Shown here in pieces: positions 5,358 through 59,758 of a stretch of DNA of 64,000 nt. Every line of letters begins with the position of its first letter. The stretch's first letter is position 1. A model generated the notes under the pieces. The model searched no databases, had not been told where the DNA came from, and saw only the letters and a program-made list of their open reading frames with translations. The position numbers and the translations under genes are program-made. Origin of the DNA: Escherichia phage alia. The stretch lies in the sequence record NC_052655.1; one strand, given 5' to 3'.

Positions 5358-6488
5358 AAATGATAATCATTCTTATTTATAGCTGATTATTTATGCAATA
5401 AACTGCATAATGCAATAATGATAATCATTCTTAACTTAAGACCATCTAACTTATAAAATAATAAGTTATCTAACTAAATTAAAGCTAATTATCTTACTTT
5501 TATTTATAACATACTGTTACTATCTTATTGATAACCTTATATTAAACAACAATAATCAATGTAAATCATTACTAAGCTAACTATAATCTATCTAACCCTT
5601 AAAACTACAATTATAATCTATCAAATTGTTGCACAAAGTAACTATTAAATTGTTAGTAACATTGCTAAATAATTAATATCCTATCTATTTATGATCTAAT
5701 CTTTACCTCCCTATCTATTACCTAAATAACCATTTCATGTGGTAATCATTTCATACAATAACTATAACAAGAAATATAATTCGCAAGCGTATCATTAGCA
5801 GCCTATGCCGGACACATAGGCGGCTAATAATAACGCAACTACACACCCCACATAATAACCATCACCGATAGTTATTATTTGTGCTTATGTAGCTTGCAAC
5901 AATTGCAAGCGCAACAATATACATGGTATATTGTATCCCTTACATTGTTGCGGTGCGTTATTATTAGCTAATGTTTAGAACATTGGCTATAATATAAGCT
6001 AAGTAATAAGCTAGTCAATAATAAACATAATGAATAATGACATTAATGATCATAATGCGCCACCCTCCAGGGGGCGCTATGTGAACACAAAGAAATCATT
6101 CTTGTCAAGAAAAATATCACCCTATTGCGCAAAATTATTTATATCTGAATAGATGATTTTTCATACTATTGCCCCCTATAACATACCTCATTTGTTGAGC
6201 CTACTTTCTTAAAAGCGCAATAAAGTAGAATTATCTTGATTTTTAGTCGGTTTTATAGTACAGAAAGTATGCAAATGATAATCATTATCAGCTATCCTCC
6301 AGGGTGGCACTATTTCACGCCAGATCATTTCATTTGGCAAGGTGTATATAGATGTTTAGAAATGCCAAGCCATTGATTTACTTAGAATTTATCTGTTTTG
6401 TTGTGAGTAGTACCTTTCTTGCTTAGAAAATAATCAAAAGTCTTATAAGTCATTGAATGATAATGCAAATGATAATTATTCTCATTGA
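5358..6488. repeat. AT-rich non-coding region with iteron-like repeats (core AATGATAATCATT) and repeated CCTCCAGGG(G/T)G(C/G)CAC motif
   Basis: Copies of (A)AATGATAATCATT(C/A)T near 5358, 5415, 6269 and 6455 (degenerate copy near 5741); CCTCCAGGGGGCGCTAT at 6064 and CCTCCAGGGTGGCACTAT at 6297. No credible ORF. Confidence 0.55.
5803..5965. repeat. palindrome-rich segment (hairpin GCCTATG...CATAGGC; inverted TAATAATAACGCAAC / GCGTTATTATTAGC)
   Basis: Read directly from sequence: 7-bp inverted repeat at 5803-5826 and longer inverted repeat arms flanking 5830-5960 with the central TTGCAACAATTGCAA palindrome. Confidence 0.45.
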
Positions 6489-18309: not shown

Positions 18310-19122
18310 TTATTTAGTCAAATGATCTTCTATCATTTTTATGAAAGCAGGATTGCTAAAAGCATCTGCGGCTTTTTCTCGATAAACAAAGACTCCTCTA
18401 TCTTCGTAAAGAAGAGTTTCTTCGTAATTAATTCCTGGGTTAACAACAATCATTTTTGTACCCATATTAAGTGCAGGGAATAATTCCCAATTAAAATTAA
18501 TAACTTGGTTTGAACATCCTACTACAACAACCAAATCTTGCATGGTCAAAGTATCAAACAAGTGAGCCATATCTGCATACAAAGGTGCAGCCTCACCAAA
18601 AAATACAACATTAGGCTTCACCCAGTTATAATCATCTATGTTTATATTGTTGTAACCGATATCTACCAGTGTCTTGTAATCTCCAGGATGCATACGATAA
18701 ACTACTTCAGGAAGATATCCGTGCACGTGAATAACAGAATTTCTGTCTACACCTGCTCGCTCTAGTAGATCATCAACGTTTGTTGTCAAGTTTACTATTT
18801 GGTTAGGATATTCCTTAAACCACTTTGCTATTTGAATATGTGCAGCATTAGGTTGTACATCTTTAAGCTCAACACGTCTTTTGTTATAAAATTCGTGTGT
18901 TTTGGCATACAAATCCATACCGTTTTCGTCTACACCACCAACCACTGGAAGATCTGGAGATGTTCTCACACGATAACCTGCTTGGAAAGCTCCAATATCG
19001 CAGATCTCTTCTAAATCATATTCTTCCCATAAAGCACGACCACTATCTGTGTCTGTTCGGAATGTTCGAATCCCACTGTCTGCACTTAAACCTGCGCCAC
19101 TGACAAAAATTACTCTTCGCAT
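18310..19122 (-). CDS. Sir2-family NAD-dependent deacylase/ADP-ribosyltransferase-like protein
   Basis: N-terminus VIFVSGAGLSADSGIRTFR matches the Sir2 Rossmann signature GAGIS-x3-GIP-x-FR; 270 aa. Confidence 0.7.
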   Translation of the reverse strand: MRRVIFVSGAGLSADSGIRTFRTDTDSGRALWEEYDLEEICDIGAFQAGYRVRTSPDLPVVGGVDENGMDLYAKTHEFYNKRRVELKDVQPNAAHIQIAKWFKEYPNQIVNLTTNVDDLLERAGVDRNSVIHVHGYLPEVVYRMHPGDYKTLVDIGYNNINIDDYNWVKPNVVFFGEAAPLYADMAHLFDTLTMQDLVVVVGCSNQVINFNWELFPALNMGTKMIVVNPGINYEETLLYEDRGVFVYREKAADAFSNPAFIKMIEDHLTK

Positions 19123-23286: not shown

Positions 23287-23607
23287 TTAACAAGTAATAT
23301 TAGGAATAATACTGGGAGTAACAATTGGAGTAATAGGGTACGTAAACCAAGGGCTTCCAATTTCCCAAGGACTATAAGGTGTACGAGGATCAAATGGAGG
23401 CGTTACTTGAGGCTTTTTCCAAATCTCCGCTAGTTGTTTCTTCCATTTATCCCTTGCTGTATCGTTATCTTCATCCAACTGTTCGTCATTATCTTTTATT
23501 TCTGATTTTGGAAATAAAAGCTCTTTGACTAACTCAACGTCTTCCGTTTCAATAGTAGTTTCTTTCGTAATATTCCCTACCGTCTCTTTAATTGTGACTT
23601 TATACAT
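23287..23607 (-). CDS. hypothetical protein (106 aa)
   Basis: ORF track. Confidence 0.45.
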   Translation of the reverse strand: MYKVTIKETVGNITKETTIETEDVELVKELLFPKSEIKDNDEQLDEDNDTARDKWKKQLAEIWKKPQVTPPFDPRTPYSPWEIGSPWFTYPITPIVTPSIIPNITC

Positions 23608-24353
23608 TAGTCCTCCTCTAAAGTAGAATAAAATTGTAACGTATTTGAATCATCAAAATATGCAAAGGTTAAATTACCATTGAAGCAAGATCCTGTATCC
23701 ATATATACCCTATTACTGCTAATTACAGGTTTAGGAACATAAGAATGCCCGTGAAATACATAATCTACTCCTGAAACTCTAGGAAGAAGAATCCCTTCAA
23801 GGGCGCAATCTATCATATCACGATCCCACATTAAAGATTCTGTGAATCGAGATACTTGTTCTTTATTCATATTCGAACAAAATGGCAAAACTTCCGTCAC
23901 TGGTAGATGTTCCAAAACTGAAGGATATCCTCCGTGAATAAAGCCTAGTTTCATATTACGATAATTGACAACAAGTACAACAGGTAAGTCTTCTAGCATC
24001 AAAGCAAGAGCAGTTGCACCTTCTTCTCCACACTCGTTTAGAACTGTATGGCCTCCGTTCTGAAACCAACATTCGTAATATCGCCTATCACCTTCTAGCA
24101 ACCCTTTAATCATCATATCTTCGTGATTTCCACGAATAGCATAGCGATTTAGCTTTCTGGTGAATTCAACGGTACAACGAAAATTCTGCTTGCCGCGATC
24201 TGTAAGATCTCCTAAAGATACAACAACATCTTGATCTCGAATACCTAAAGTATTAACACCTTTCTGGTATAAATCAAAGCAACCATGTAAATCACCAATA
24301 ATAAACAGGTCTTGATCATCTTTTACACTAATTTCTTGATATACTAGCATCAA
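23607..24353 (-). CDS. Ser/Thr protein phosphatase (calcineurin-like metallophosphatase, PPP family)
   Basis: GDLHG, GDLTDRG and GNHE metal-binding motifs in canonical order and spacing. Confidence 0.8.
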   Translation of the reverse strand: MMLVYQEISVKDDQDLFIIGDLHGCFDLYQKGVNTLGIRDQDVVVSLGDLTDRGKQNFRCTVEFTRKLNRYAIRGNHEDMMIKGLLEGDRRYYECWFQNGGHTVLNECGEEGATALALMLEDLPVVLVVNYRNMKLGFIHGGYPSVLEHLPVTEVLPFCSNMNKEQVSRFTESLMWDRDMIDCALEGILLPRVSGVDYVFHGHSYVPKPVISSNRVYMDTGSCFNGNLTFAYFDDSNTLQFYSTLEED

Positions 24354-46225: not shown

Positions 46226-46261
46226 AATACCTCCAATAAGCCCCCGAAGGGGCTTTATTTC

Positions 46262-46984
46262 TTAAGCAATGATTGCTGCGATATTAGGTTTAACAAAGGT
46301 AGATGGTTTCATAATTTTACCTTTGTCATCAAAGAATACGTACACCTTTTGAACTTCGTTATATACAGCATGTACCCCAGTATAAGAACCTTCTGCACGA
46401 TCTTTGCTTCGCATCTCGATAGCATCGCACTCTTTTTCAAGAGCTTCAATAATATCCTTAGTTTCCCAAATAGCCAGGAGTTGCTTCTTGGTAGGATACT
46501 TGGACTCATTGCTATTCAACACTTCACGCATAACCTTCTTCTCGTTATAAACAGAACGCACCAAAGTATCTCGTGCCATACGGGTAAGTGTAAGAGACAT
46601 TAAGGCAAATTGCAAGTCATTTTCTACCATTTTATCAAATTCAATGATAACATCGTAAATGTTCTCTGCCAGAACATCTCCTGTCGGCATTTCCAGAGCT
46701 TTATCAACACCTTCTTTACCAAAGAACATAAACGCCAGGTAGGATGCTACCACAAAAATATCTGCTGCTGCATCAAGTAATTCAACGTGATCATTTTCCT
46801 GTGCTGCTGCTTGAAACTCTTTAAGTTCTTCTCGTACAAAAGAAAGTTGAGCTTCAAACATCTCTTGAGTAAATTCTGGAGTTACTCCACCACGCGCCTT
46901 AGCATTCCAAGCAACAATTTGATCGGCAGCTTTGATAAAGAAGCTATTGTCCACTTTTACTTGTTTGAAAAAATTCTCGATCAT
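46262..46984 (-). CDS. MazG-like nucleoside triphosphate pyrophosphohydrolase
   Basis: REELKEF...ELLDAAADIFVVA fits the EExxE-x(n)-ExxD metal-binding pattern of all-alpha MazG/dUTPase-like NTP pyrophosphatases. Confidence 0.5.
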   Translation of the reverse strand: MIENFFKQVKVDNSFFIKAADQIVAWNAKARGGVTPEFTQEMFEAQLSFVREELKEFQAAAQENDHVELLDAAADIFVVASYLAFMFFGKEGVDKALEMPTGDVLAENIYDVIIEFDKMVENDLQFALMSLTLTRMARDTLVRSVYNEKKVMREVLNSNESKYPTKKQLLAIWETKDIIEALEKECDAIEMRSKDRAEGSYTGVHAVYNEVQKVYVFFDDKGKIMKPSTFVKPNIAAIIA

Positions 46985-46993
46985 TGTTTCTCC

Positions 46994-47200
46994 TTATTTA
47001 AAATATTGTTCTAACAAAACACTAATGCGAACTACCGATTCGCCCATATACGCCCCAGCACAAAGGAAAACAACAAATCTACAAAAATTGCAGTACCATT
47101 TGTCCACTGGAAACGAGGCTAACATTATAATTGCAATAGCAATTAACATCATAAGAACTGTTACTAATACCATATTACCTCTTACTCTGCTGGTTCCCAA
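46994..47200 (-). CDS. hypothetical membrane protein (68 aa)
   Basis: ORF track; hydrophobic stretch VLVTVLMMLIAIAIIMLASF. Confidence 0.4.
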   Translation of the reverse strand: MGTSRVRGNMVLVTVLMMLIAIAIIMLASFPVDKWYCNFCRFVVFLCAGAYMGESVVRISVLLEQYFK

Positions 47201-48297
47201 GTACCTGGAATCATCTTACGTACACGTACCCCAACAGGTTTGGTAGGAATACCTTCGTCTGAAAATTCTTCGTACTCAATTTCAACAAATTGACCAATAA
47301 GTGTCAAAGCATTTTCTTCTTTACGATAGTTAATGGTTTCATCTGAATCCTTACGCATCAGGAATTCGACTACTTTACCATTTTCCATCTCTCCTGTCAA
47401 TACCCCGTCACCATTTTTATCACGCTTTGCACTTACCACTTTAACTTCAAGCGTCTGACGTGGTTTACGTTTAATAACATCATAAGAACGTTTATCGAAT
47501 TCGTAAACACCTTTTGCGTTACGATACACCACACCTTCCGCTTTCTCATGTAGGGCTTTTGCATAGAAAGCATCAAACTGTTCTTGGTTTTCAATGTACT
47601 CTGTATGTACTACACAAATAAGTTCATCTAAACCTTTATCTTCAACAACTTCTTTTAGAGCAGCCAAAACTTGAACCCTCTTCTCAAATGGTACAGATGC
47701 CACAGGAACATCATATACATAGTATTTAAGAAGCGGTGTGTTAGCATTATGCTTTTTCCACGCACTATTAATTTGTTGAAGGCTAAGGACACCCAAGCCA
47801 GCAAAAACTTCACCGTCAAGAGGATGACCAACTACTTCTTTAATGAAGGTTGGAATTTCTTCCCAGTGAGGTGGAAGTTTATATACCTCCCCAGCTTTAG
47901 ATAAACATTCACCTTGCATGTTAATCATTGAACGTAGACCATTCAATTTATATTGTGCATAACCTGGGAACAAAACACGATCAGCATAATCTTTATAATC
48001 CTGACATTTCATGGGTGTGGAAGGAACATGGTTTTCAGCTTCCTCTTTTGTTTTATAATACCCATTCTTAAGTTGCTTTGTCCATTTGGCAAGAGCTTCT
48101 ATTTCAGCTTGTTCTTCTGCTGTTGTTTCATTTGAGCGACCAATATTTTTAGGTTCTGCTGTATAAGATTTGCTAGTAATTTTTCCACCTAATTGACCAT
48201 GAGCAACAGTTACAACACTACCTTCGGTATAGACTGACCACTGTTTAATTTTACCTGTAGAAGTTTTACCATATAATGTAGGATTAGTTTGTTTCAT
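47182..48297 (-). CDS. ATP-dependent nucleic acid ligase (likely DNA ligase)
   Basis: ORF track 47182..48345; start moved to ATG 48297 (GGAGG upstream). Nucleotidyltransferase motif I KLNGLR (KxNGxR), motif IV EGVVYRN, motif V-like VIKRK. Confidence 0.6.
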   Translation of the reverse strand: MKQTNPTLYGKTSTGKIKQWSVYTEGSVVTVAHGQLGGKITSKSYTAEPKNIGRSNETTAEEQAEIEALAKWTKQLKNGYYKTKEEAENHVPSTPMKCQDYKDYADRVLFPGYAQYKLNGLRSMINMQGECLSKAGEVYKLPPHWEEIPTFIKEVVGHPLDGEVFAGLGVLSLQQINSAWKKHNANTPLLKYYVYDVPVASVPFEKRVQVLAALKEVVEDKGLDELICVVHTEYIENQEQFDAFYAKALHEKAEGVVYRNAKGVYEFDKRSYDVIKRKPRQTLEVKVVSAKRDKNGDGVLTGEMENGKVVEFLMRKDSDETINYRKEENALTLIGQFVEIEYEEFSDEGIPTKPVGVRVRKMIPGTWEPAE

Positions 48298-48487
48298 CTT
48301 TAACCTCCAGTTGCGAAAGAACCCATTTAGCCATTTCAATTTCACCGTGCAGTCTGCCTAGTTCATAGGCATCATCAATATTACCACCAGTGTAATCATC
48401 CACCATAAAGTAAGGATCTTCGCTACTGTTAGGTGCGTTTGCAATTCTCGTTAGTTCTTCAATAAATGTCATAGTTACCCTTACCAA
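48284..48487 (-). CDS. hypothetical protein (67 aa)
   Basis: ORF track. Confidence 0.4.
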   Translation of the reverse strand: MVRVTMTFIEELTRIANAPNSSEDPYFMVDDYTGGNIDDAYELGRLHGEIEMAKWVLSQLEVKDETN

Positions 48488-48705
48488 TTATACACAAGAG
48501 TTTGAATCTCTTCCATCAAGTCTTCAAGATCTGTATCAACGTATTCAGAAGATGTTGCCATAAAGTATGTAATCATTGTGAACCCTTCCGAAGAAAGGGC
48601 ATCAAGGATATCATTAAACATATCTTCCATTTCAGTATTCTCACCAAATGAGAATAACATTTGTTGATCTTCGCTTACACCTTTAACATAGATAGCTGTA
48701 CTCAT
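48481..48705 (-). CDS. hypothetical acidic protein (74 aa)
   Basis: ORF track. Confidence 0.45.
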   Translation of the reverse strand: MSTAIYVKGVSEDQQMLFSFGENTEMEDMFNDILDALSSEGFTMITYFMATSSEYVDTDLEDLMEEIQTLVYNW

Positions 48706-48708
48706 ATA

Positions 48709-49029
48709 TTAATCCTTAAGACGTTCATTTAAATCTGCAATAACATCACCTAAATCTTCACATTCCAGTGTTAACTCTGAAACTTGTTCATTCAAACAAG
48801 AAACTTCTTCGTTTAGATCTGAAATAATATTTTCTAATGAATCTACTTGGTCATCATATGCACGTTTTGTTTCTTCAAGTTCTTCCGTAAGATCATTAAT
48901 CAAACGGAGCAAAGATAAGATATAGCCGTCTCCTGTCTCGTTCCTCCACTCACTTCCGTAGCGATAAATAATAATTTCACCATCATCGACTACTGTAAAA
49001 TACTTACCTTCACCAGAATAAATTTCCAT
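48709..49029 (-). CDS. hypothetical coiled-coil protein (106 aa)
   Basis: ORF track; C-terminal heptad-like acidic repeats (LEETKRAYDDQVDSLENIISDLNEEVSCLNEQVSELTLE). Confidence 0.5.
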   Translation of the reverse strand: MEIYSGEGKYFTVVDDGEIIIYRYGSEWRNETGDGYILSLLRLINDLTEELEETKRAYDDQVDSLENIISDLNEEVSCLNEQVSELTLECEDLGDVIADLNERLKD

Positions 49030-49038
49030 ACACTCTCC

Positions 49039-49443
49039 TTATTGTAGCTTAAGTGAACTGCGAAGACGTTTCTCTTGCTGATCACGAATATGTTGTGGAA
49101 CATCATGAATTGAGTCGTTACCGTGCCTATTTTCAACAACTAAAGAGATAACTTGATAACCAAACTCTTCAGCAAGAGTTAAATAAGGTTTAAGTTCTTT
49201 CTCTGTGGTTGAAGTGTTAGAGACAATAATCTTTTCAACACCATACTGCATATATTTTTGTACTTTGACACGACACCATTGGTGTGCTTTATGGATATTC
49301 TCTTCCTTCCACTCATACACACCATCTTCAGTGTAGTGGTATTGATCTGCCTCACAAATAGGCCAATGATTTTCAGAAATAATTTCTGCTACTGTAGATT
49401 TACCTGCACCTGAAACACCACGTAAAATGATAAGTTGTTTCAT
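49039..49443 (-). CDS. P-loop kinase, polynucleotide 5'-kinase-like
   Basis: ILRGVSGAGKSTVAE Walker A and IIVSNTSTT parallel the T4 Pnk kinase domain (ILTIGCPGSGKSTWA...VIISDTNL); 134 aa, kinase only. Confidence 0.65.
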   Translation of the reverse strand: MKQLIILRGVSGAGKSTVAEIISENHWPICEADQYHYTEDGVYEWKEENIHKAHQWCRVKVQKYMQYGVEKIIVSNTSTTEKELKPYLTLAEEFGYQVISLVVENRHGNDSIHDVPQHIRDQQEKRLRSSLKLQ

Positions 49444-50376
49444 TTAGCCTCCAAAGAAGTTTTCTATTTCTTTACGTCGCTCTTGTGGATCTAGAGCAGC
49501 CCATTGAACCTTCGTAAAGTTATTTCGAAGCCATTCTAGCAAAGTATAATATTCTTCGTCAACAATTTGTTTAGCATTGTTTGGGTTGTCCCAAATCATA
49601 TCCCACTTCTTATTGCCACCACGCATAAGGAATTTCTTAGCAAGATAGTATGGTGACTTAATCTTTAAGAGTAAGTTAAACGGATAGTTTGTTTCACGAA
49701 CAACAAAGCCTTCGTGTCTACAATGTTTAGACATTTCAACAACATCTGAAAATTTAATCATCGGATAAACTTCAGGACGTTTAAACTTTGTAACAGATGC
49801 AATCCCATCAAGAACACCTTCAGGTAACATGAAACTTGTCCCATCAAGATTTTGAATTCTTGCTCCAATTAAGTATGCGCCTGGTTCTTCTTCGACAATA
49901 TGTGGATCAGAAGGATCACAGATTTCAAAAAGGAAAGTTGCTTTTGCACTTTCTGTCCACTTAATGAAATACTCTATGTCGTCACACTCGGAAACAATAC
50001 GGTTCTTTGCCATAATTGCAAAATCTGATTCTAGGCTCCCTGTTGTTGATACAACAAGTTTCCCTTTGTACACACCTACAGATGCCATAAAACCGTTTAC
50101 TTTACGGACAGCATCTACAAGTTCATCTGCTGGAAGATCTGTACCATTCTCAAAACGATTAAAGATTTTAGTAAAAGGCCAAACAACAACATTGTCTTCT
50201 GAGTCAACAACCAACCCACGACAATCTAGAAGTCGTTTGTCAACGTTCCACAAATTATCCCAGAATACATTGTTTTTGTATTTAAGTACAGCAAGACCAG
50301 CATACTCTCCAGATTTAACTTCTTTTTTATGCACTAAACCTTTTGCAATCAGGTCATCACAATTGAACTTAGCCAC
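49444..50376 (-). CDS. RNA ligase (Rnl-type nucleotidyltransferase)
   Basis: Motif I RKVNGF (KxNG), motif IV EGFVVRE, motif V LLLKIK; 310 aa; immediately between the kinase and phosphoesterase genes. Confidence 0.65.
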   Translation of the reverse strand: MAKFNCDDLIAKGLVHKKEVKSGEYAGLAVLKYKNNVFWDNLWNVDKRLLDCRGLVVDSEDNVVVWPFTKIFNRFENGTDLPADELVDAVRKVNGFMASVGVYKGKLVVSTTGSLESDFAIMAKNRIVSECDDIEYFIKWTESAKATFLFEICDPSDPHIVEEEPGAYLIGARIQNLDGTSFMLPEGVLDGIASVTKFKRPEVYPMIKFSDVVEMSKHCRHEGFVVRETNYPFNLLLKIKSPYYLAKKFLMRGGNKKWDMIWDNPNNAKQIVDEEYYTLLEWLRNNFTKVQWAALDPQERRKEIENFFGG

Positions 50377-50377
50377 C

Positions 50378-50929
50378 TTAATCTCCTTTGATTATCTTAT
50401 GATGGTCTACAACAACAATATCACGTTTATCCATAATAGAGATGATTTCGTCAAAATGCAAGATTTTTCCGTGTGCATCCCAACCAACATCCAACATTTT
50501 CCCATACAAATGATCAGGGAATGATCCGTGAGAGTGTCCGTGTAGCATGATTGATCCATGCCCTTGTTTATTCCAGGCAGCCATAGGGTAATGGCTTAAG
50601 ACGAAAAACAGCTTCTGATATTTCACTTCGTCATAATAAATCACTTCTCCATACTCTGCAAGCACTTTTCTGTGTTTACTGTAATCATGATTCCCAACAC
50701 AGTAAGTAATATCCCCTTGGAGACGGGAAGCAATCTTACGGGTATCTTCTTCAGTCCCGAAACAGAAGTCCCCAAGATGGTACATCTTTACTCCTGGTGT
50801 TGTGGCACATTTATTCCATGCTTCGATCAGTGCTTCTGTCATATGTTCCATATCTTCCCACGGGCGATATTCAGGAGCAAACTCTCGAATACGTTTGTGC
50901 ATAAAATGCAAATCACTTGTAATAAACAT
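50378..50929 (-). CDS. calcineurin-like metallophosphoesterase
   Basis: DLHFMH...GDFCFG...GNHD...GHSH metal-ligand motifs; 183 aa. Confidence 0.75.
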   Translation of the reverse strand: MFITSDLHFMHKRIREFAPEYRPWEDMEHMTEALIEAWNKCATTPGVKMYHLGDFCFGTEEDTRKIASRLQGDITYCVGNHDYSKHRKVLAEYGEVIYYDEVKYQKLFFVLSHYPMAAWNKQGHGSIMLHGHSHGSFPDHLYGKMLDVGWDAHGKILHFDEIISIMDKRDIVVVDHHKIIKGD

Positions 50930-51446: not shown

Positions 51447-51821
51447 TTAGTAGTTAACACGTTTAATTTCAACACCATAGGATGAAATAAAATTTTCCTT
51501 GGCTAACATATATTTACCAGCAGCAGAAGGATTTGATGTATGAACATAGATAGTTTTAAGAGCATCCCATTCACCCGCGTACAACATACATTCTACGTCT
51601 AAGAACGCATGATATCCTTCTTGATCTTCTCCAAGATCATTATCGAAGTGTATCTCTGAGATATTATTGAAATTATCTTCATCTGAAACAAAAGATGACC
51701 AATCCCCAAAAGATTTTAACCAAATGGCATCCTCATAACCATAATCTTTAGGATCTCTTAAATCGTCTAACCAAAGAATTTTAGCCACTATCAACCCCCT
51801 TCCTGTTTCTCTTCTTTCCAA
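51447..51821 (-). CDS. hypothetical protein (124 aa)
   Basis: ORF track. Confidence 0.5.
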   Translation of the reverse strand: MERRETGRGLIVAKILWLDDLRDPKDYGYEDAIWLKSFGDWSSFVSDEDNFNNISEIHFDNDLGEDQEGYHAFLDVECMLYAGEWDALKTIYVHTSNPSAAGKYMLAKENFISSYGVEIKRVNY

Positions 51822-57263: not shown

Positions 57264-57271
57264 TATTCAAG

Positions 57272-57347
57272 GTTCCATAGCTCACTGACGAGAGCGCACA
57301 CCTCATAAGTGTCGAGGGCAGGGATTGTAACCCTGGGGAACCACCAT
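57272..57347 (+). tRNA. tRNA-Met/Ile2 (anticodon CAT)
   Basis: Hand-folded cloverleaf: acceptor GGTTCCA/GGGAACC (one mismatch), anticodon loop CTCATAA, 3' CCA encoded. Confidence 0.55.
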
Positions 57348-57377
57348 TTAAAAGGAGGTGCTATGCATCTCCTATAT

Positions 57378-57463
57378 GCAAGTGTGGTGGAATTGGTGAT
57401 ACACATTGTGCTTAAAACGCAACGCTTAAATGCTTGAGGGTTCGAATCCCTCCACTTGCACCA
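57378..57463 (+). tRNA. tRNA-Leu (anticodon TAA)
   Basis: Acceptor GCAAGTG/CACTTGC, anticodon stem TTGTG/CGCAA with loop CTTAAAA, long variable arm, T-loop GGTTCGAATCC, CCA encoded. Confidence 0.7.
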
Positions 57464-57478
57464 ACACCTAAAAATATC

Positions 57479-57507
57479 TTGACATTTACTTAGTTTTTTG
57501 TTATAGT
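57479..57507 (+). promoter_or_regulatory. sigma70-like promoter inside the tRNA cluster
   Basis: TTGACA 57479-57484, 17-nt spacer, TATAGT. Confidence 0.5.
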
Positions 57508-57518
57508 CGTTATGAAAA

Positions 57519-57600
57519 CGGGGTGTATCTCACCTGACTTCTAATCAGGCGTTAACCGAGTAATTGGAGTATGCAGGTTCGAATCCTGTCACCCCGGCCA
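57519..57600 (+). tRNA. atypical tRNA-like gene (possible anticodon TCT)
   Basis: Perfect acceptor CGGGGTG/CACCCCG and T-arm GCAGG-TTCGAAT-CCTGT with CCA, but only one internal hairpin (CCTGA-CTTCTAA-TCAGG) and no recognisable D-arm; isotype uncertain. Confidence 0.4.
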
Positions 57601-57618
57601 AAAAGTTTTAAAAACTAC

Positions 57619-57647
57619 TTGACAAGCAAGATAGTTTTATGTTAGAT
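57619..57647 (+). promoter_or_regulatory. sigma70-like promoter inside the tRNA cluster
   Basis: TTGACA 57619-57624, 17-nt spacer, TTAGAT. Confidence 0.45.
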
Positions 57648-57663
57648 TTAAAGTATGATAACG

Positions 57664-57753
57664 GGAAGGTAGGGCGCAGCGGTGCGCAACCAGGTTTGAA
57701 CCCTGGCCCATTGTAGCGATACGGTGATGGTTCGACTCCATTATCTTCCTCCA
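57664..57753 (+). tRNA. tRNA-Ser (anticodon TGA)
   Basis: Acceptor GGAAGGT/ATCTTCC (G-U at pair 6), anticodon stem CCAGG/CCTGG with loop TTTGAAC, long variable arm, T-loop GGTTCGACTCC, CCA encoded. Confidence 0.65.
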
Positions 57754-57798
57754 AATTCAATTAGTAACAGATTCAGGTTGTTTTGAATAATTAAAAAT

Positions 57799-57884
57799 GG
57801 TAGATTGGTGAAATGGTAGCCACAACAGTTTGCTAAACTGTCGTCGGAAACGGCGTGTAGGTTCAAGTCCTACATCTACCGCCA
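57799..57884 (+). tRNA. tRNA-Ser (anticodon GCT)
   Basis: Acceptor GGTAGAT/ATCTACC, anticodon stem ACAGT/ACTGT with loop TTGCTAA, long variable arm, T-loop GGTTCAAGTCC, CCA encoded. Confidence 0.7.
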
Positions 57885-58054
57885 AGTTATCTTTAATGTA
57901 GCTTGTTGCTCTTAGTTGCTTGGTGTAACTTTTTGGAAGAATGGCTGCAACCATCTTACTTTAATAGAGTAAACTTTCGGCAGATGGCCCCCACCATCTT
58001 ACCGATACCTCATAGTCAGTGGTGCGAACACTGGCTATTTTAAAGATAATTTAT

Positions 58055-58129
58055 ACATCGTTAGCCAAGCGGTAAGGCACTTGACTTTTAATCAAGGGAG
58101 CGAAGGTTCGAATCCTTCACGATGTACCA
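58055..58129 (+). tRNA. tRNA-Lys (anticodon TTT)
   Basis: Acceptor ACATCGT/ACGATGT, anticodon stem CTTGA/TCAAG with loop CTTTTAA, T-loop GGTTCGAATCC, CCA encoded. Confidence 0.65.
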
Positions 58130-58134
58130 AACAC

Positions 58135-58221
58135 GTAGGTATCGCATAGCGGCAATTGCTGGAGACTGTAAATCTCCTGCCCTTCGGGGCTTCGTTGGTT
58201 CGAGTCCAACTACCTGCACCA
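58135..58221 (+). tRNA. tRNA-Tyr (anticodon GTA)
   Basis: Acceptor GTAGGTA/TACCTGC (one G-U), anticodon stem GGAGA/TCTCC with loop CTGTAAA, long variable arm, T-loop GGTTCGAGTCC, CCA encoded. Confidence 0.65.
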
Positions 58222-58228
58222 AATTAAA

Positions 58229-58313
58229 GATGGATTGGCCTAGTGGTTGGGCGACGGACTGTTAATCCGTGAACGAAAGTTCTAGCAAGGTTCAAATCCT
58301 TGATCCATCGCCA
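58229..58313 (+). tRNA. tRNA-Asn (anticodon GTT) with unusually long variable region
   Basis: Acceptor GATGGAT/ATCCATC, anticodon stem ACGGA/TCCGT with loop CTGTTAA, extra hairpin GAAC-GAAA-GTTC in the variable region, T-loop GGTTCAAATCC, CCA encoded. Confidence 0.55.
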
Positions 58314-58392
58314 AATAGTGCTTGTAGAGTTAATAGAAACCTCTAGAATTTTCTAGAATTGTAGGTATCAAACCCTACCAAGCAAATATTTT

Positions 58393-58467
58393 GCTCCTAT
58401 CGTATAACGGCTATTACGGTTGCCTTGTAAGCAACTTATCAGGGTTCGAGTCCTTGTGGGAGCACCA
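58393..58467 (+). tRNA. tRNA-Thr (anticodon TGT)
   Basis: Acceptor GCTCCTA/TGGGAGC (one G-U), anticodon stem GTTGC/GCAAC with loop CTTGTAA, T-loop GGTTCGAGTCC, CCA encoded. Confidence 0.7.
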
Positions 58468-58489
58468 ATTTAACTCTAAAGGAGTGTAT

Positions 58490-58813
58490 GTGACAGAAAA
58501 AGAGTTAGAGAAATATTTTAATATCAATGTTTTCGATGGTTTTGATGCTATTGAAGATGTTGAAAGATATTATGAAGTAGAGTTAGATAAGGATAACATT
58601 GTAATTCTTTCTGCCACTTATGATTGTGCATATTATGAAGGCGAATCTCACGTTTATTTCTATGATATGAAAACATCTTTGTTTTATGAAGTACACGCAT
58701 ATCATTGTTCTTGTTATGGCTTAGAAGGTCAGTGGGAACCTGAAGAAATAGGTGATTTGAGCTTTACGGTTGCATATCTAAACAGACGTGGCGCATCTAC
58801 TATTTTAAAATAA
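58490..58813 (+). CDS. hypothetical Cys-rich protein embedded in the tRNA cluster (107 aa, GTG start)
   Basis: ORF track 58391..58813 overlaps tRNA-Thr; start moved to GTG 58490, 5 nt after AAGGAG. C-terminal YHCSCYG cysteines. Confidence 0.5.
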   Translation: MTEKELEKYFNINVFDGFDAIEDVERYYEVELDKDNIVILSATYDCAYYEGESHVYFYDMKTSLFYEVHAYHCSCYGLEGQWEPEEIGDLSFTVAYLNRRGASTILK

Positions 58814-58827
58814 ATATTAAAAGCCTC

Positions 58828-58856
58828 TTGACAAAGGGGCTAATAATATGTTAGAG
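58828..58856 (+). promoter_or_regulatory. sigma70-like promoter inside the tRNA cluster
   Basis: TTGACA 58828-58833, 17-nt spacer, TTAGAG (TAATAT alternative). Confidence 0.45.
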
Positions 58857-58868
58857 TAATATTGTTAA

Positions 58869-58943
58869 GCGGGTATAGTGTTAATGGTAGCATATGAGGT
58901 TTCCACCCTCCAGGTGCAGGTTCAAGTCCTGTTACTCGCTCCA
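58869..58943 (+). tRNA. tRNA-Gly (anticodon TCC)
   Basis: Acceptor GCGGGTA/TACTCGC (one G-U), anticodon loop TTTCCAC, T-loop GGTTCAAGTCC, CCA encoded. Confidence 0.6.
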
Positions 58944-59042
58944 AGATTATTTAAATGGAATCGCTAGAGAAAATTTCTCTTTTCGCTCATGGTTTTCTCC
59001 TTCAAACTCTAGCGGTTCTTTTTAAGTGATTTTTAGTTTTAT

Positions 59043-59117
59043 TGGAGATTAGCCTAGTGGGAAGGCAACGGCCTTTGAAGTCGTGATGACTAGGTTCGAT
59101 TCCTAGATCTCCAGCCA
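59043..59117 (+). tRNA. tRNA-Gln (anticodon TTG)
   Basis: Acceptor TGGAGAT/ATCTCCA, anticodon stem ACGGC/GTCGT with loop CTTTGAA, T-loop GGTTCGATTCC, CCA encoded. Confidence 0.65.
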
Positions 59118-59124
59118 ATATTTA

Positions 59125-59200
59125 CAGTGCGTAGCGCAGTTGGTAGCGTGGGAGCTTTGGATGCTTCGGGTCGCAGGTTCGAGTCCTGCCGCACTGACCA
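59125..59200 (+). tRNA. tRNA-Pro (anticodon TGG)
   Basis: Acceptor CAGTGCG/CGCACTG, anticodon stem GGAGC/GCTTC with loop TTTGGAT, T-loop GGTTCGAGTCC, CCA encoded. Confidence 0.7.
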
Positions 59201-59205
59201 AATTT

Positions 59206-59280
59206 GCAGAGATAGCTGAGACGGATTAGTGCTACCCTGAAAAGGTAGAAAGGATGGATCGTTACCATCTCTCTGCACCA
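59206..59280 (+). tRNA. tRNA-Phe (anticodon GAA) with non-canonical T-loop
   Basis: Acceptor GCAGAGA/TCTCTGC, anticodon stem CTACC/GGTAG with loop CTGAAAA, T-arm GATGG-ATCGTTA-CCATC (not the usual TTCGAAT), CCA encoded. Confidence 0.55.
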
Positions 59281-59357
59281 AATAACACCATCCAAGGAGT
59301 AGACTTGGTTAACTGTCAATAGCACATTGAGGCTTCTTACAGTGGTGTACTTATTAT

Positions 59358-59442
59358 GGCTAAGTGGTGGAATGGTATACACGATACGCTTAGAACGTAT
59401 TGCCCCAAGGGATTGTGAGTTCGAGTCTCACCTTAGCTACCA
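59358..59442 (+). tRNA. tRNA-Leu (anticodon TAG)
   Basis: Acceptor GGCTAAG/CTTAGCT (G1-U72), anticodon stem ATACG/CGTAT with loop CTTAGAA, long variable arm, T-loop GAGTTCGAGTCTC, CCA encoded. Confidence 0.65.
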
Positions 59443-59457
59443 AATTATTACAGGTTT

Positions 59458-59536
59458 CGCGGGATAGAGGAGTCTGGTCGTCCTCGCCAGTTTCATATGC
59501 TGGAGATCATCGGTTCGAATCCGATTTCCGCCTCCA
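59458..59536 (+). tRNA. tRNA-Met/Ile (anticodon CAT), C1/C72 mismatch
   Basis: Anticodon stem CCAGT/GCTGG with loop TTCATAT, T-arm ATCGG-TTCGAAT-CCGAT, CCA encoded; first acceptor pair is C-C, and D-loop is long. Confidence 0.5.
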
Positions 59537-59613
59537 ATAAATACCTCCATTCTGGTGTAATGATTAAATTACATTGACACTTCAAGGAACTCATAGCCGG
59601 GTAGATTTAAAAG

Positions 59614-59680
59614 AGTATGGTACTCAATATGGCTCCAAACCATAGATCAGGGGGTTCGATTCCTCACCTTGCTGCCAATT
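59614..59680 (+). tRNA. degenerate or D-arm-less tRNA-like element (possible anticodon CCA, Trp)
   Basis: Canonical T-loop GGTTCGATTCC and 3' GCCA, internal hairpin TATGG-CTCCAAA-CCATA, but acceptor pairing is imperfect and no D-arm fits; only about 64 nt before CCA. Confidence 0.3.
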
Positions 59681-59682
59681 AT

Positions 59683-59758
59683 TGTGGTATCGTACAGATG
59701 GTTAGTACACTCGACCGATAATCGAGAAACAACGGTTCGACTCCGTTTACCACGACCA
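59683..59758 (+). tRNA. tRNA-Ile (anticodon GAT)
   Basis: Acceptor TGTGGTA/TACCACG (T1-G72), anticodon stem CTCGA/TCGAG with loop CCGATAA, T-loop GGTTCGACTCC, CCA encoded. Confidence 0.6.

Follow-up and report, generated by a model that had tools for sequence, protein, structure and literature searches.

Layout of the locus

The DNA analysed here is a stretch of 64,000 nucleotides from Escherichia phage alia (sequence record NC_052655.1), which is referred to as the window. On its minus strand, three consecutive genes encode a metallophosphoesterase (MPE), an ATP-dependent RNA ligase of the Rnl1 family (RNL) and a stand-alone P-loop kinase (KIN) resembling the kinase domain of T4 polynucleotide kinase (Pnk), a combination that we discuss as a putative RNA repair cassette. 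A first-pass annotation made from the sequence had described these three open reading frames (ORFs) together with a nearby DNA ligase. All four are present in the ORF list where that annotation had put them, and each of its domain calls held up in Pfam, PHROG, profile and structure comparisons, the family matches being much stronger than chance would give. The cassette and the other features considered are listed in Table 1.

Table 1. Features of the window that are part of, or discussed with, the putative RNA repair cassette.
Feature	Position	Strand	Basis
Metallophosphoesterase (MPE), aq_1665 clade, 183 aa	50378..50929	-	phrog_547, 1xm7 profile match, motifs
Rnl1-family ATP-dependent RNA ligase (RNL), 310 aa, GTG start	49444..50376	-	PF09511, motifs, fold
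Stand-alone Pnk-type P-loop kinase (KIN), 134 aa	49039..49443	-	AAA_33, phrog_505, T4 Pnk alignment
Three small ORFs (106, 74 and ~62-67 aa) between kinase and DNA ligase	48284..49029	-	ORF list
ATP-dependent DNA ligase	47182..48297	-	PF01068, phrog_114, NF006592
T4 Arn.3-like protein (PF26092, T4_Y16D), 120 aa	50929..51288	-	hhalign to T4 Arn.3
cREC (cyclic-phosphate-processing receiver-like) protein	51447..51788	-	PF20274, conserved residues
MazG-like nucleotide pyrophosphohydrolase	46262..46984	-	PF01503, phrog_671
Sir2-family protein	18310..19122	-	tblastn, PF02146, NCBIfam Sir2 models
Array of ~15 phage tRNA genes	57271..59758	+	ARAGORN, Rfam

The Arn.3-like, MPE, ligase and kinase genes are spaced for translational coupling: the stop codon of the first overlaps the start codon of the MPE gene (TAATG), a single nucleotide separates the MPE and ligase genes (TAA-G-GTG), and the ligase and kinase genes abut (TAA-ATG). 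The cassette lies inside a long block of minus-strand genes, reaching roughly from 18 to 54 kb as judged by GC skew, that holds nucleotide-metabolism, replication and recombination genes.

Between 46 and 52 kb, the window matches over 50 phages in GenBank with 97-98% identity from end to end; they belong to the genus Justusliebigvirus and include phi92, outra, Eryne and EmilieFrey, and the window comes from a phi92-like member of this genus. The matching phages are E. coli myoviruses of ~146 kb. Three records named 'Campylobacter phage' (MG065689, MG065650 and MG065654) carry a ligase up to 95.8% identical to that of the E. coli Justusliebigvirus phages, and their host labels look doubtful.

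The RNA ligase

By sequence and predicted fold, the 310-aa protein is an Rnl1-clade RNA ligase and would be the sealing enzyme of the cassette. It matches PF09511 (RNA_lig_T4_1, 4e-14) and phrog_562 (4e-68), and nucleotidyltransferase motifs I (KxxG), III, IV (EGxxx) and V (KxK) are all present. An alignment of 25 homologues reaching down to 49% identity shows no variation at K92-V-N-G95, F150-E151, E222-G223 and K238-I-K240, and R53, K70 and F72 are kept in it as well. The motifs quoted in the first-pass annotation were likewise recovered, with K92-V-N-G95 and E222-G-F-V-V-R invariant across the homologues and KLNGLR present in the DNA ligase.

An AlphaFold2 model of the protein (pLDDT 88.7) was compared with known structures by Foldseek, and its top folds are T4 Rnl1 and fungal Trl1-LIG (E 8e-13 to 5e-11, TMq 0.62-0.68). 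Rnl3 (4e-10 to 8e-7), Rnl2 (~1e-5) and Naegleria Rnl5 (~1e-4) scored more weakly, as did the DNA ligases. An hhalign comparison with T4 Rnl1 taken from NC_000866 gave a probability of 97.1% (E 7e-11), so that the earlier assignment as an Rnl-type RNA ligase is borne out by both fold and sequence. In this alignment R53, K70, F72, K92, E151, E222-G223, K238 and K240 pair with T4 R54, K75, F77, K99, E159, E227-G228, K240 and K242, the essential motif residues of the T4 enzyme. The pairs include the Rnl1-type N-terminal elements, where C-R53-G of the ligase corresponds to T4 ECR54G and PFT-K70-I-F72-N to T4 PMEK75FF77N; mutational work has Arg54, Lys75 and Phe77 of T4 Rnl1 as essential residues.

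Among PDB sequences, T4 Rnl1 was the sole strong match of the ligase profile (1e-10), and Trl1 was not detected by it. A single-sequence phmmer search of the same sequences returned nothing useful, a profile or a structure being required. The C-terminal domain of the ligase is helical and comprises residues 242-309, ~60 aa compared to ~120 aa in T4 Rnl1.

The kinase

The 134-aa protein is, judged by its sequence, a kinase domain of the T4 Pnk type without HAD phosphatase and a putative 5'-OH polynucleotide kinase. In hhalign it matched T4 Pnk with 98.3% probability; all of its 134 residues fall on T4 residues 1-151, before the phosphatase domain, so it corresponds to the kinase domain only. 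No HAD match was found for it in Pfam, in agreement with the earlier description of the activities as residing in separate ORFs. D33 aligns with the catalytic Asp35 of T4 Pnk, and the resemblance to the T4 kinase domain noted in the first-pass annotation is thereby corroborated.

The protein matches AAA_33 in Pfam (4.5e-10) as well as phrog_2071 (3e-58) and phrog_505 'polynucleotide kinase' (1.4e-9) in PHROG. With a profile built from 20 sequences, the best PDB matches were T4 Pnk over the full length (9e-10), Capnocytophaga Pnkp1 (2e-8) and the CthPnkp kinase (5.5e-7), and further down PSTK (3e-6) and mammalian PNKP (4e-5). An adenylate kinase 9 chain scored 2.5e-8 via 31-residue P-loop matches only, and gluconate, shikimate and other adenylate kinases scored weaker than 1e-5, again over the P-loop only. 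The best relatives among solved structures (T4 Pnk, Pnkp1, CthPnkp and mammalian PNKP) are without exception polynucleotide 5'-kinases. D33 and the motif residues of the P-loop R8-G-x-x-G12-x-G14-K15-S-T17 are present in all 20 homologues, except for G12, which at least 90% of them share, and H113-x-V115-P116 is invariant across the family.

The phosphoesterase

The third protein retains all metallophosphoesterase metal-ligand motifs (DxH, GD, GNH[DE], H and GHxH): D6-x-H8, G53-D54, G79-N80-H81, H113 and G131-H132-x-H134 are invariant among 17 homologues. It matches phrog_547 (1.7e-54), and as a single sequence it reaches 21.1 bits against Metallophos_2 in Pfam, under the gathering cutoff of 27 bits. 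The only strong PDB match of the family profile is 1XM7 (aq_1665, 6.4e-23), and neither a CthPnkp nor a lambda phosphatase chain is among its four PDB matches at E<=0.1. The protein is therefore calcineurin-like, as the first-pass annotation had it, and falls into the aq_1665 clade, separate from the clade of the lambda-phosphatase-type phosphatase of bacterial Pnkp.

Hydrolysis of 2',3'-cyclic phosphates is documented for two binuclear metallophosphoesterases, CthPnkp and lambda phosphatase (PMC2190708). For the MPE we propose a role as healer of the RNA 3' end, where it would act on a 2',3'-cyclic phosphate or a 3'-phosphate. A search of 1.84 billion representative proteins returned relatives of the MPE in 11,297 representative clusters.

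The window encodes a second metallophosphoesterase, unlinked to the cassette, at 23607-24353 on the minus strand (PF00149, 4e-14). Its counterpart in phage Eryne is annotated as 'NinI-like serine-threonine phosphatase', and from this annotation we read it as the lambda-phosphatase type.

Linkage and gene fusions in other phages

IMG/VR was scanned with ligase peptide patterns, which yielded 68 distinct viral loci with ligase identities of 30-97%, and the partner genes were detected by hidden Markov model (HMM) searches of their ORFs. All three genes lie within 6 kb of each other in 60 of the 68 loci, with a median span of 2.3 kb. Nearly all of these complete loci (58 of 60) are co-directional, in the order MPE-RNL-KIN (n=30) or KIN-RNL-MPE (n=28), while several of the 8 incomplete ones are interrupted by a contig end. 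The MPE gene is linked to the ligase gene in 64/68 loci.

Gene fusions were also found. In one locus (L066, 5392-6846), kinase and ligase are fused in a single 484-codon ORF with the MPE gene directly downstream. The best MPE relative (P0159, 55% identity) is fused to an RNA ligase of another family, PF09414, and two more relatives (P0186 and P0190) are fused to PF18143 (HAD_SAK_2), the 'Swiss Army Knife' HAD domain of RNA repair. The genome of Listeria phage A511 has an annotated RNA ligase gene ~1 kb from its MPE gene and a gene of the RtcB type ('tRNA splicing ligase') ~3.5 kb away. In a set of 50,697 phage genomes, the ligase was found in 757 records, the kinase in 624 and the MPE in 1393, the genus counts of ligase and kinase being almost identical.

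Because of the conserved linkage in 60 of the 68 loci and the gene fusions, there are strong comparative arguments for the trio being one functional module that would act on RNA ends. The idea of the first-pass annotation that the three genes act together thus gains backing from diverse viral contigs.

Proposed pathway

We consider it probable that the trio constitutes a self-sufficient heal-and-seal module for the repair of broken RNAs, likely of cut tRNA anticodon loops. Gene identities, intact active-site motifs, conserved linkage and fusions are what is observed at these loci; we infer the enzymatic activities, the order of the steps, the substrate and the anti-defence role. A cut by a host endoribonuclease, either an anticodon nuclease or a toxin, would leave one end with a 2',3'-cyclic phosphate and the other with a 5'-OH. 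The binuclear MPE of the aq_1665 type would first clear the end of its cyclic or 3' phosphate, leaving a 3'-OH, after which the 134-aa Pnk-type kinase would phosphorylate the 5'-OH with ATP. Finally, the Rnl1-type ligase would join the resulting 3'-OH/5'-PO4 nick via a lysyl-AMP at K92. Likely substrates would be broken anticodon loops of host tRNAs or of the ~15 tRNAs of the phage itself. The logic would parallel that of T4 Pnkp and Rnl1 in reversing PrrC damage, and in the T4 record (NC_000866) rnlA and pseT are annotated as tRNA repair in prr hosts. The first-pass annotation had named RloC next to PrrC as a nuclease that could be countered. This was a poor choice of example, RloC being described as a remover of the wobble base and as 'repair-defying' (PMC7824862).

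Neighbouring and accessory genes

Two further genes that had been left out of the first-pass annotation encode a cREC protein next to the cassette and a distant Sir2-family protein. cREC proteins are described in PMC7824862 and PMC9503650. The one in the window matches PF20274 (3.9e-13) and has the conserved DD.R, DNDLGE, NP.A and K with the receiver-like acidic residues; its gene lies upstream of the MPE gene, beyond the Arn.3-like gene and an annotated ORF of 49 codons. In the 68 loci surveyed, cREC is found next to the cassette only in L004-L011, L015, L017 and L046, and Sir2 adjoins it in L006-L017. In rV5-like phages the order is MPE ... RNL-cREC-KIN-Sir2-DNA ligase, with the genes from RNL to Sir2 tightly packed. 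One of these relatives (L006) carries, at 5369-6010 between the MPE and ligase genes, a 213-aa ORF that has no counterpart in the window and that we suspect to encode a homing endonuclease.

The Sir2 protein of the window (PF02146, 1.6e-22, and NCBIfam Sir2 models) is 54% identical to the Sir2 encoded directly after the kinase in rV5-like phages (tblastn 2e-100). Its gene lies ~30 kb from the cassette at the far end of the minus-strand block, and no Sir2 gene is found near the cassette; it has moved by this distance in phi92-like phages. The slot held by Sir2 in rV5-like phages is occupied in the window by the three small ORFs, which gave no informative family match, the 106-aa ORF having only weak coiled-coil-type matches (phrog_18076). 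Altogether, cREC and Sir2 accompany the trio in ~12-14 of the 68 loci, all from one group of ~145-kb enterobacterial myoviruses, and we therefore count them as extras and not as members of the core.

The 120-aa ORF that precedes the MPE gene was suspected to encode a shortened sirtuin or a repair enzyme lacking from the set; this was rejected, as its product is a homologue of T4 Arn.3 (hhalign 100%, E 1.8e-39). Its model (pLDDT 91) had no structural neighbour in a fold search, and a literature search for 'PF26092' found nothing. The position of the gene varies: an Erwinia phage has it amid its replication genes, and in L073 it adjoins the cassette. For these reasons, namely its homology, the missing structural neighbour and the variable position, we kept it out of the pathway.

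On the downstream side, the longest ORF of the DNA ligase spans 47182-48345, and the ATG at 48297, which follows GGAGG and agrees with the public annotation, is most likely its start. The first-pass annotation was right in calling the second ligase a probable DNA ligase, as its KLNGLR motif and the matches to PF01068 (2.3e-11), phrog_114 (1e-74) and NF006592 'DNA ligase' (1.3e-19) support; the distance of 1 kb given there has to be corrected to 742 nt from the kinase stop to the ligase start. Situated among RdgC-like and exonuclease genes, it is probably a replication/repair ligase outside the RNA pathway. Further downstream, the MazG-like protein matches PF01503 (3e-7) and phrog_671 (6e-28), and MazG is named in print among the members of the rV5-type neighbourhood (PMC9503650, section 3.7.3). 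Genes for NadV and PRPP synthetase are found at a distance of 3-5 kb from the cassette.

A promoter and terminator scan from 45.8 to 54 kb gave no excess over shuffled sequence (30 promoters compared to 26.7), so operon boundaries are not inferable from it. Just downstream of the MazG-like gene, a G+C-rich hairpin at 46230-46255 is terminator-like on both strands and could be where the transcription unit with the cassette ends.

The tRNA array includes Lys-UUU, Tyr-GUA, Asn-GUU and Thr-UGU, and the phage tRNAs are possible repair substrates, a possible parallel counter-measure to tRNA-cutting defences, or both. The tRNA calls differ in part between programs, with 57271-57346 (Met) and 57664-57753 (Ser) called by ARAGORN only and 57519-57597 by Rfam only, and the tRNA-Asn call has 85 nt, an unusual length for Asn. 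An Rfam scan of the window detected tRNAs only, and NCBIfam and PADLOC gave no informative match for the trio.

Evidence against the proposal and alternative explanations

Several observations weigh against RNA repair by the trio. Literature searches turned up no biochemical or genetic study of the three proteins. The kinase has no conserved equivalent of Arg38 of T4 Pnk (a His36 follows D33-x-Y and is not conserved), and its lid arginine R106 (ENRH), present in the window, varies across the family; Arg38 and the lid Arg126 are phosphate contacts in T4 Pnk. For the ligase, tRNA specificity is unproven, since the hhalign alignment ends at T4 residue 265 and leaves out the C-terminal domain, the part of T4 Rnl1 that confers tRNA specificity. 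The MPE family is broader than the ligase family, with 1393 compared to 757 phage records and the 11,297 clusters in addition; the aq_1665 family has no known function, and some of its members need not act on RNA. Finally, the presence of cREC and Sir2 in the phi92/rV5 group suggests that the trio may need help with the chemistry.

One alternative is the pathway proposed by Iyer et al. in 2022 (PMC9503650, section 3.7.3), an NAD+-linked route of the Trl1/Tpt1 kind. There, cREC or the MPE would open the cyclic phosphate to a 2'-phosphate and a 3'-OH, the kinase and the ligase would join the ends, and Sir2 would transfer the 2'-phosphate at the junction to NAD+, with a NadV/PRPP-synthetase salvage supplying the cofactor. 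The gene content of the window fits in so far as the same array encodes cREC, two genes upstream of the MPE, a Sir2 homologue is retained and both salvage genes are found within 3-5 kb, while rV5-like relatives have RNL-cREC-KIN-Sir2 tightly packed. The fold of the ligase is equally close to Trl1-LIG and T4 Rnl1, but its sequence profile finds T4 Rnl1 (1e-10) and not Trl1. The confinement of cREC and Sir2 to ~12-14 of the 68 loci, all in one group, implies that the core works without them, and no sirtuin is known to take 2'-phosphates off RNA, the proposal itself being termed a prediction by its authors. The ~30 kb between Sir2 and the cassette and the closer sequence affinity of the ligase to T4 Rnl1 argue mildly against such a pathway as the main route, which we deem unlikely. 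We are doubtful as well, if slightly less so, about a wider version in which the phi92/rV5 trio is the core of an NAD+-linked RNA repair network, with cREC opening 2',3'-cyclic phosphates, Sir2 acting in a Tpt1/KptA-like manner and NAD+ salvage feeding the network, and about the broader idea that the aq_1665 family, with more than 11,000 clusters, serves as a general RNA 3'-end healer. If true, the removal of 2'-phosphates from RNA by Sir2 would be a new sirtuin reaction.

The three genes could also have unrelated functions and be held together by synteny only. The ligase would then help to attach tail fibres, as T4 gp63 does, the kinase would act on nucleotides or be a generic ATPase, and the MPE would be a protein phosphatase or degrade nucleotide second messengers in anti-signalling counter-defence. 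Compatible with this are some of the labels given in databases (for instance 'RNA ligase and tail fiber protein attachment catalyst', 'ATPase' or 'phosphoesterase'), the generic Pfam matches of the kinase (AAA_33, AAA_18) and the breadth of the uncharacterised MPE family. Passive synteny is however inadequate to explain a linkage that survives ligase identities down to 30%, rearrangements of gene order and fusions, and the ligase retains every adenylyltransferase residue, which makes this explanation very improbable. The least probable explanation that we considered is a DNA-end repair set, in which kinase and MPE would clean 5'-OH/3'-phosphate nicks arising in DNA replication or recombination, similar to mammalian PNKP, and one of the two ligases would seal them. 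The cassette does lie amid DNA-metabolism genes (DNA ligase, RdgC-like, 5'-exonuclease and DnaQ-like exonuclease), and both T4 Pnk and mammalian PNKP, the latter being among the kinase profile matches, act on DNA ends. On the other hand, the linked ligase belongs to the RNA-specific Rnl1 clade, the fusion partners of the MPE are RNA ligase and RNA-repair HAD domains, and many loci that keep the trio have no DNA ligase in the neighbourhood.

Significance

GenBank already labels the proteins 'polynucleotide kinase', 'RNA ligase' or 'RNA ligase/RNA repair', and 'phosphoesterase', and the related rV5 neighbourhood has been read as RNA repair in print (PMC9503650). The novelty of the split arrangement that the first-pass annotation implied was hence overstated. 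Our analysis adds that the MPE is a constant core partner of the cassette, that it belongs to the aq_1665 clade, that independent fusions tie this clade to RNA repair and that Sir2 was relocated in phi92-like phages. The tRNA-cutting defences named in the discussion of the 2026 OLD preprint include PARIS, retron-Septu, Cas13, Schlafen, OLD and others.

Such defences are now recognised as common in bacteria. To our knowledge, T4 Pnkp with Rnl1 is the only phage RNA repair pathway understood experimentally, and the cassette, with its ligase in 757 of 50,697 phage genomes, would be a far more widespread alternative to it. The ligase-bearing genomes include those of Pseudomonas and Klebsiella phages from genera under study for therapy. 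If the function of the cassette is established, it would give the uncharacterised aq_1665 family a role and indicate which defences these phages can undo.

Comparison with known systems

The closest structure to the MPE, that of the Aquifex aeolicus structural-genomics metallophosphoesterase aq_1665 (1XM7), has a similarly compact size of ~190 aa; the match is good over the N-terminal 120 residues and poor C-terminally. The fungal and plant Trl1 with Tpt1 likewise pair an Rnl1-clade ligase with a kinase and an enzyme that opens cyclic phosphates, and Trl1-LIG is an equally good structural match to the cassette ligase. Trl1, however, carries three functions on one protein, has a 2H cyclic phosphodiesterase and requires a 2'-phosphate, whereas the cassette has no 2H domain and no Tpt1/KptA homologue.

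The rV5/Mydo neighbourhood described by Iyer et al. (PMC9503650) consists of a sirtuin, for which removal of 2'-phosphates in the manner of KptA was proposed, a T4-like tRNA ligase, cREC, a nucleotide kinase, MazG and an occasional calcineurin-like phosphoesterase. Ligase, kinase, cREC, MazG-like protein and MPE are all encoded within 46.2-51.8 kb of the window, and its phage group is the nearest kin of the rV5-like loci (L006-L010 and L015). The window differs in that Sir2 lies outside the neighbourhood, ~30 kb off, and that cREC is found upstream of the MPE gene instead of between ligase and kinase. Furthermore, the MPE is a near-constant core partner (64/68 loci) and not an occasional one, while Sir2 and cREC are lineage-specific.

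Bacterial Pnkp, as known from Clostridium thermocellum, resembles the cassette in having a P-loop polynucleotide kinase and an ATP-dependent RNA ligase, and it, too, has a binuclear metallophosphoesterase, with which it heals 2',3'-cyclic phosphates. It is established as one polypeptide, in contrast to the three ORFs found here, and its phosphatase is of the lambda-phosphatase type and not of the aq_1665 clade. It also works with Hen1, whereas Pfam and PHROG scans of the cassette neighbourhood detected no Hen1-like methyltransferase.

The strongest likeness is to Pnkp (pseT) and Rnl1 (rnlA/gp63) of T4, where the genes for healing and sealing also lie near each other on the phage genome and where the three chemical steps are the same as those predicted for the cassette. 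Both the ligase and the kinase are homologous to their T4 counterparts, T4 Rnl1 being the best fold and the best PDB sequence-profile match of the former. The ligase is shorter than T4 Rnl1 (310 compared to 374 aa), and the C-terminal domains do not align. In T4 Pnkp, the kinase is fused to a HAD (DxDxT) phosphatase, whereas the cassette kinase stops at the point that corresponds to the end of the T4 kinase domain, and the proposed healer of the 3' end is a separate MPE of the aq_1665 type. By its sequences, the cassette thus appears to be a known kind of system equipped with a non-orthologous 3'-end phosphatase.

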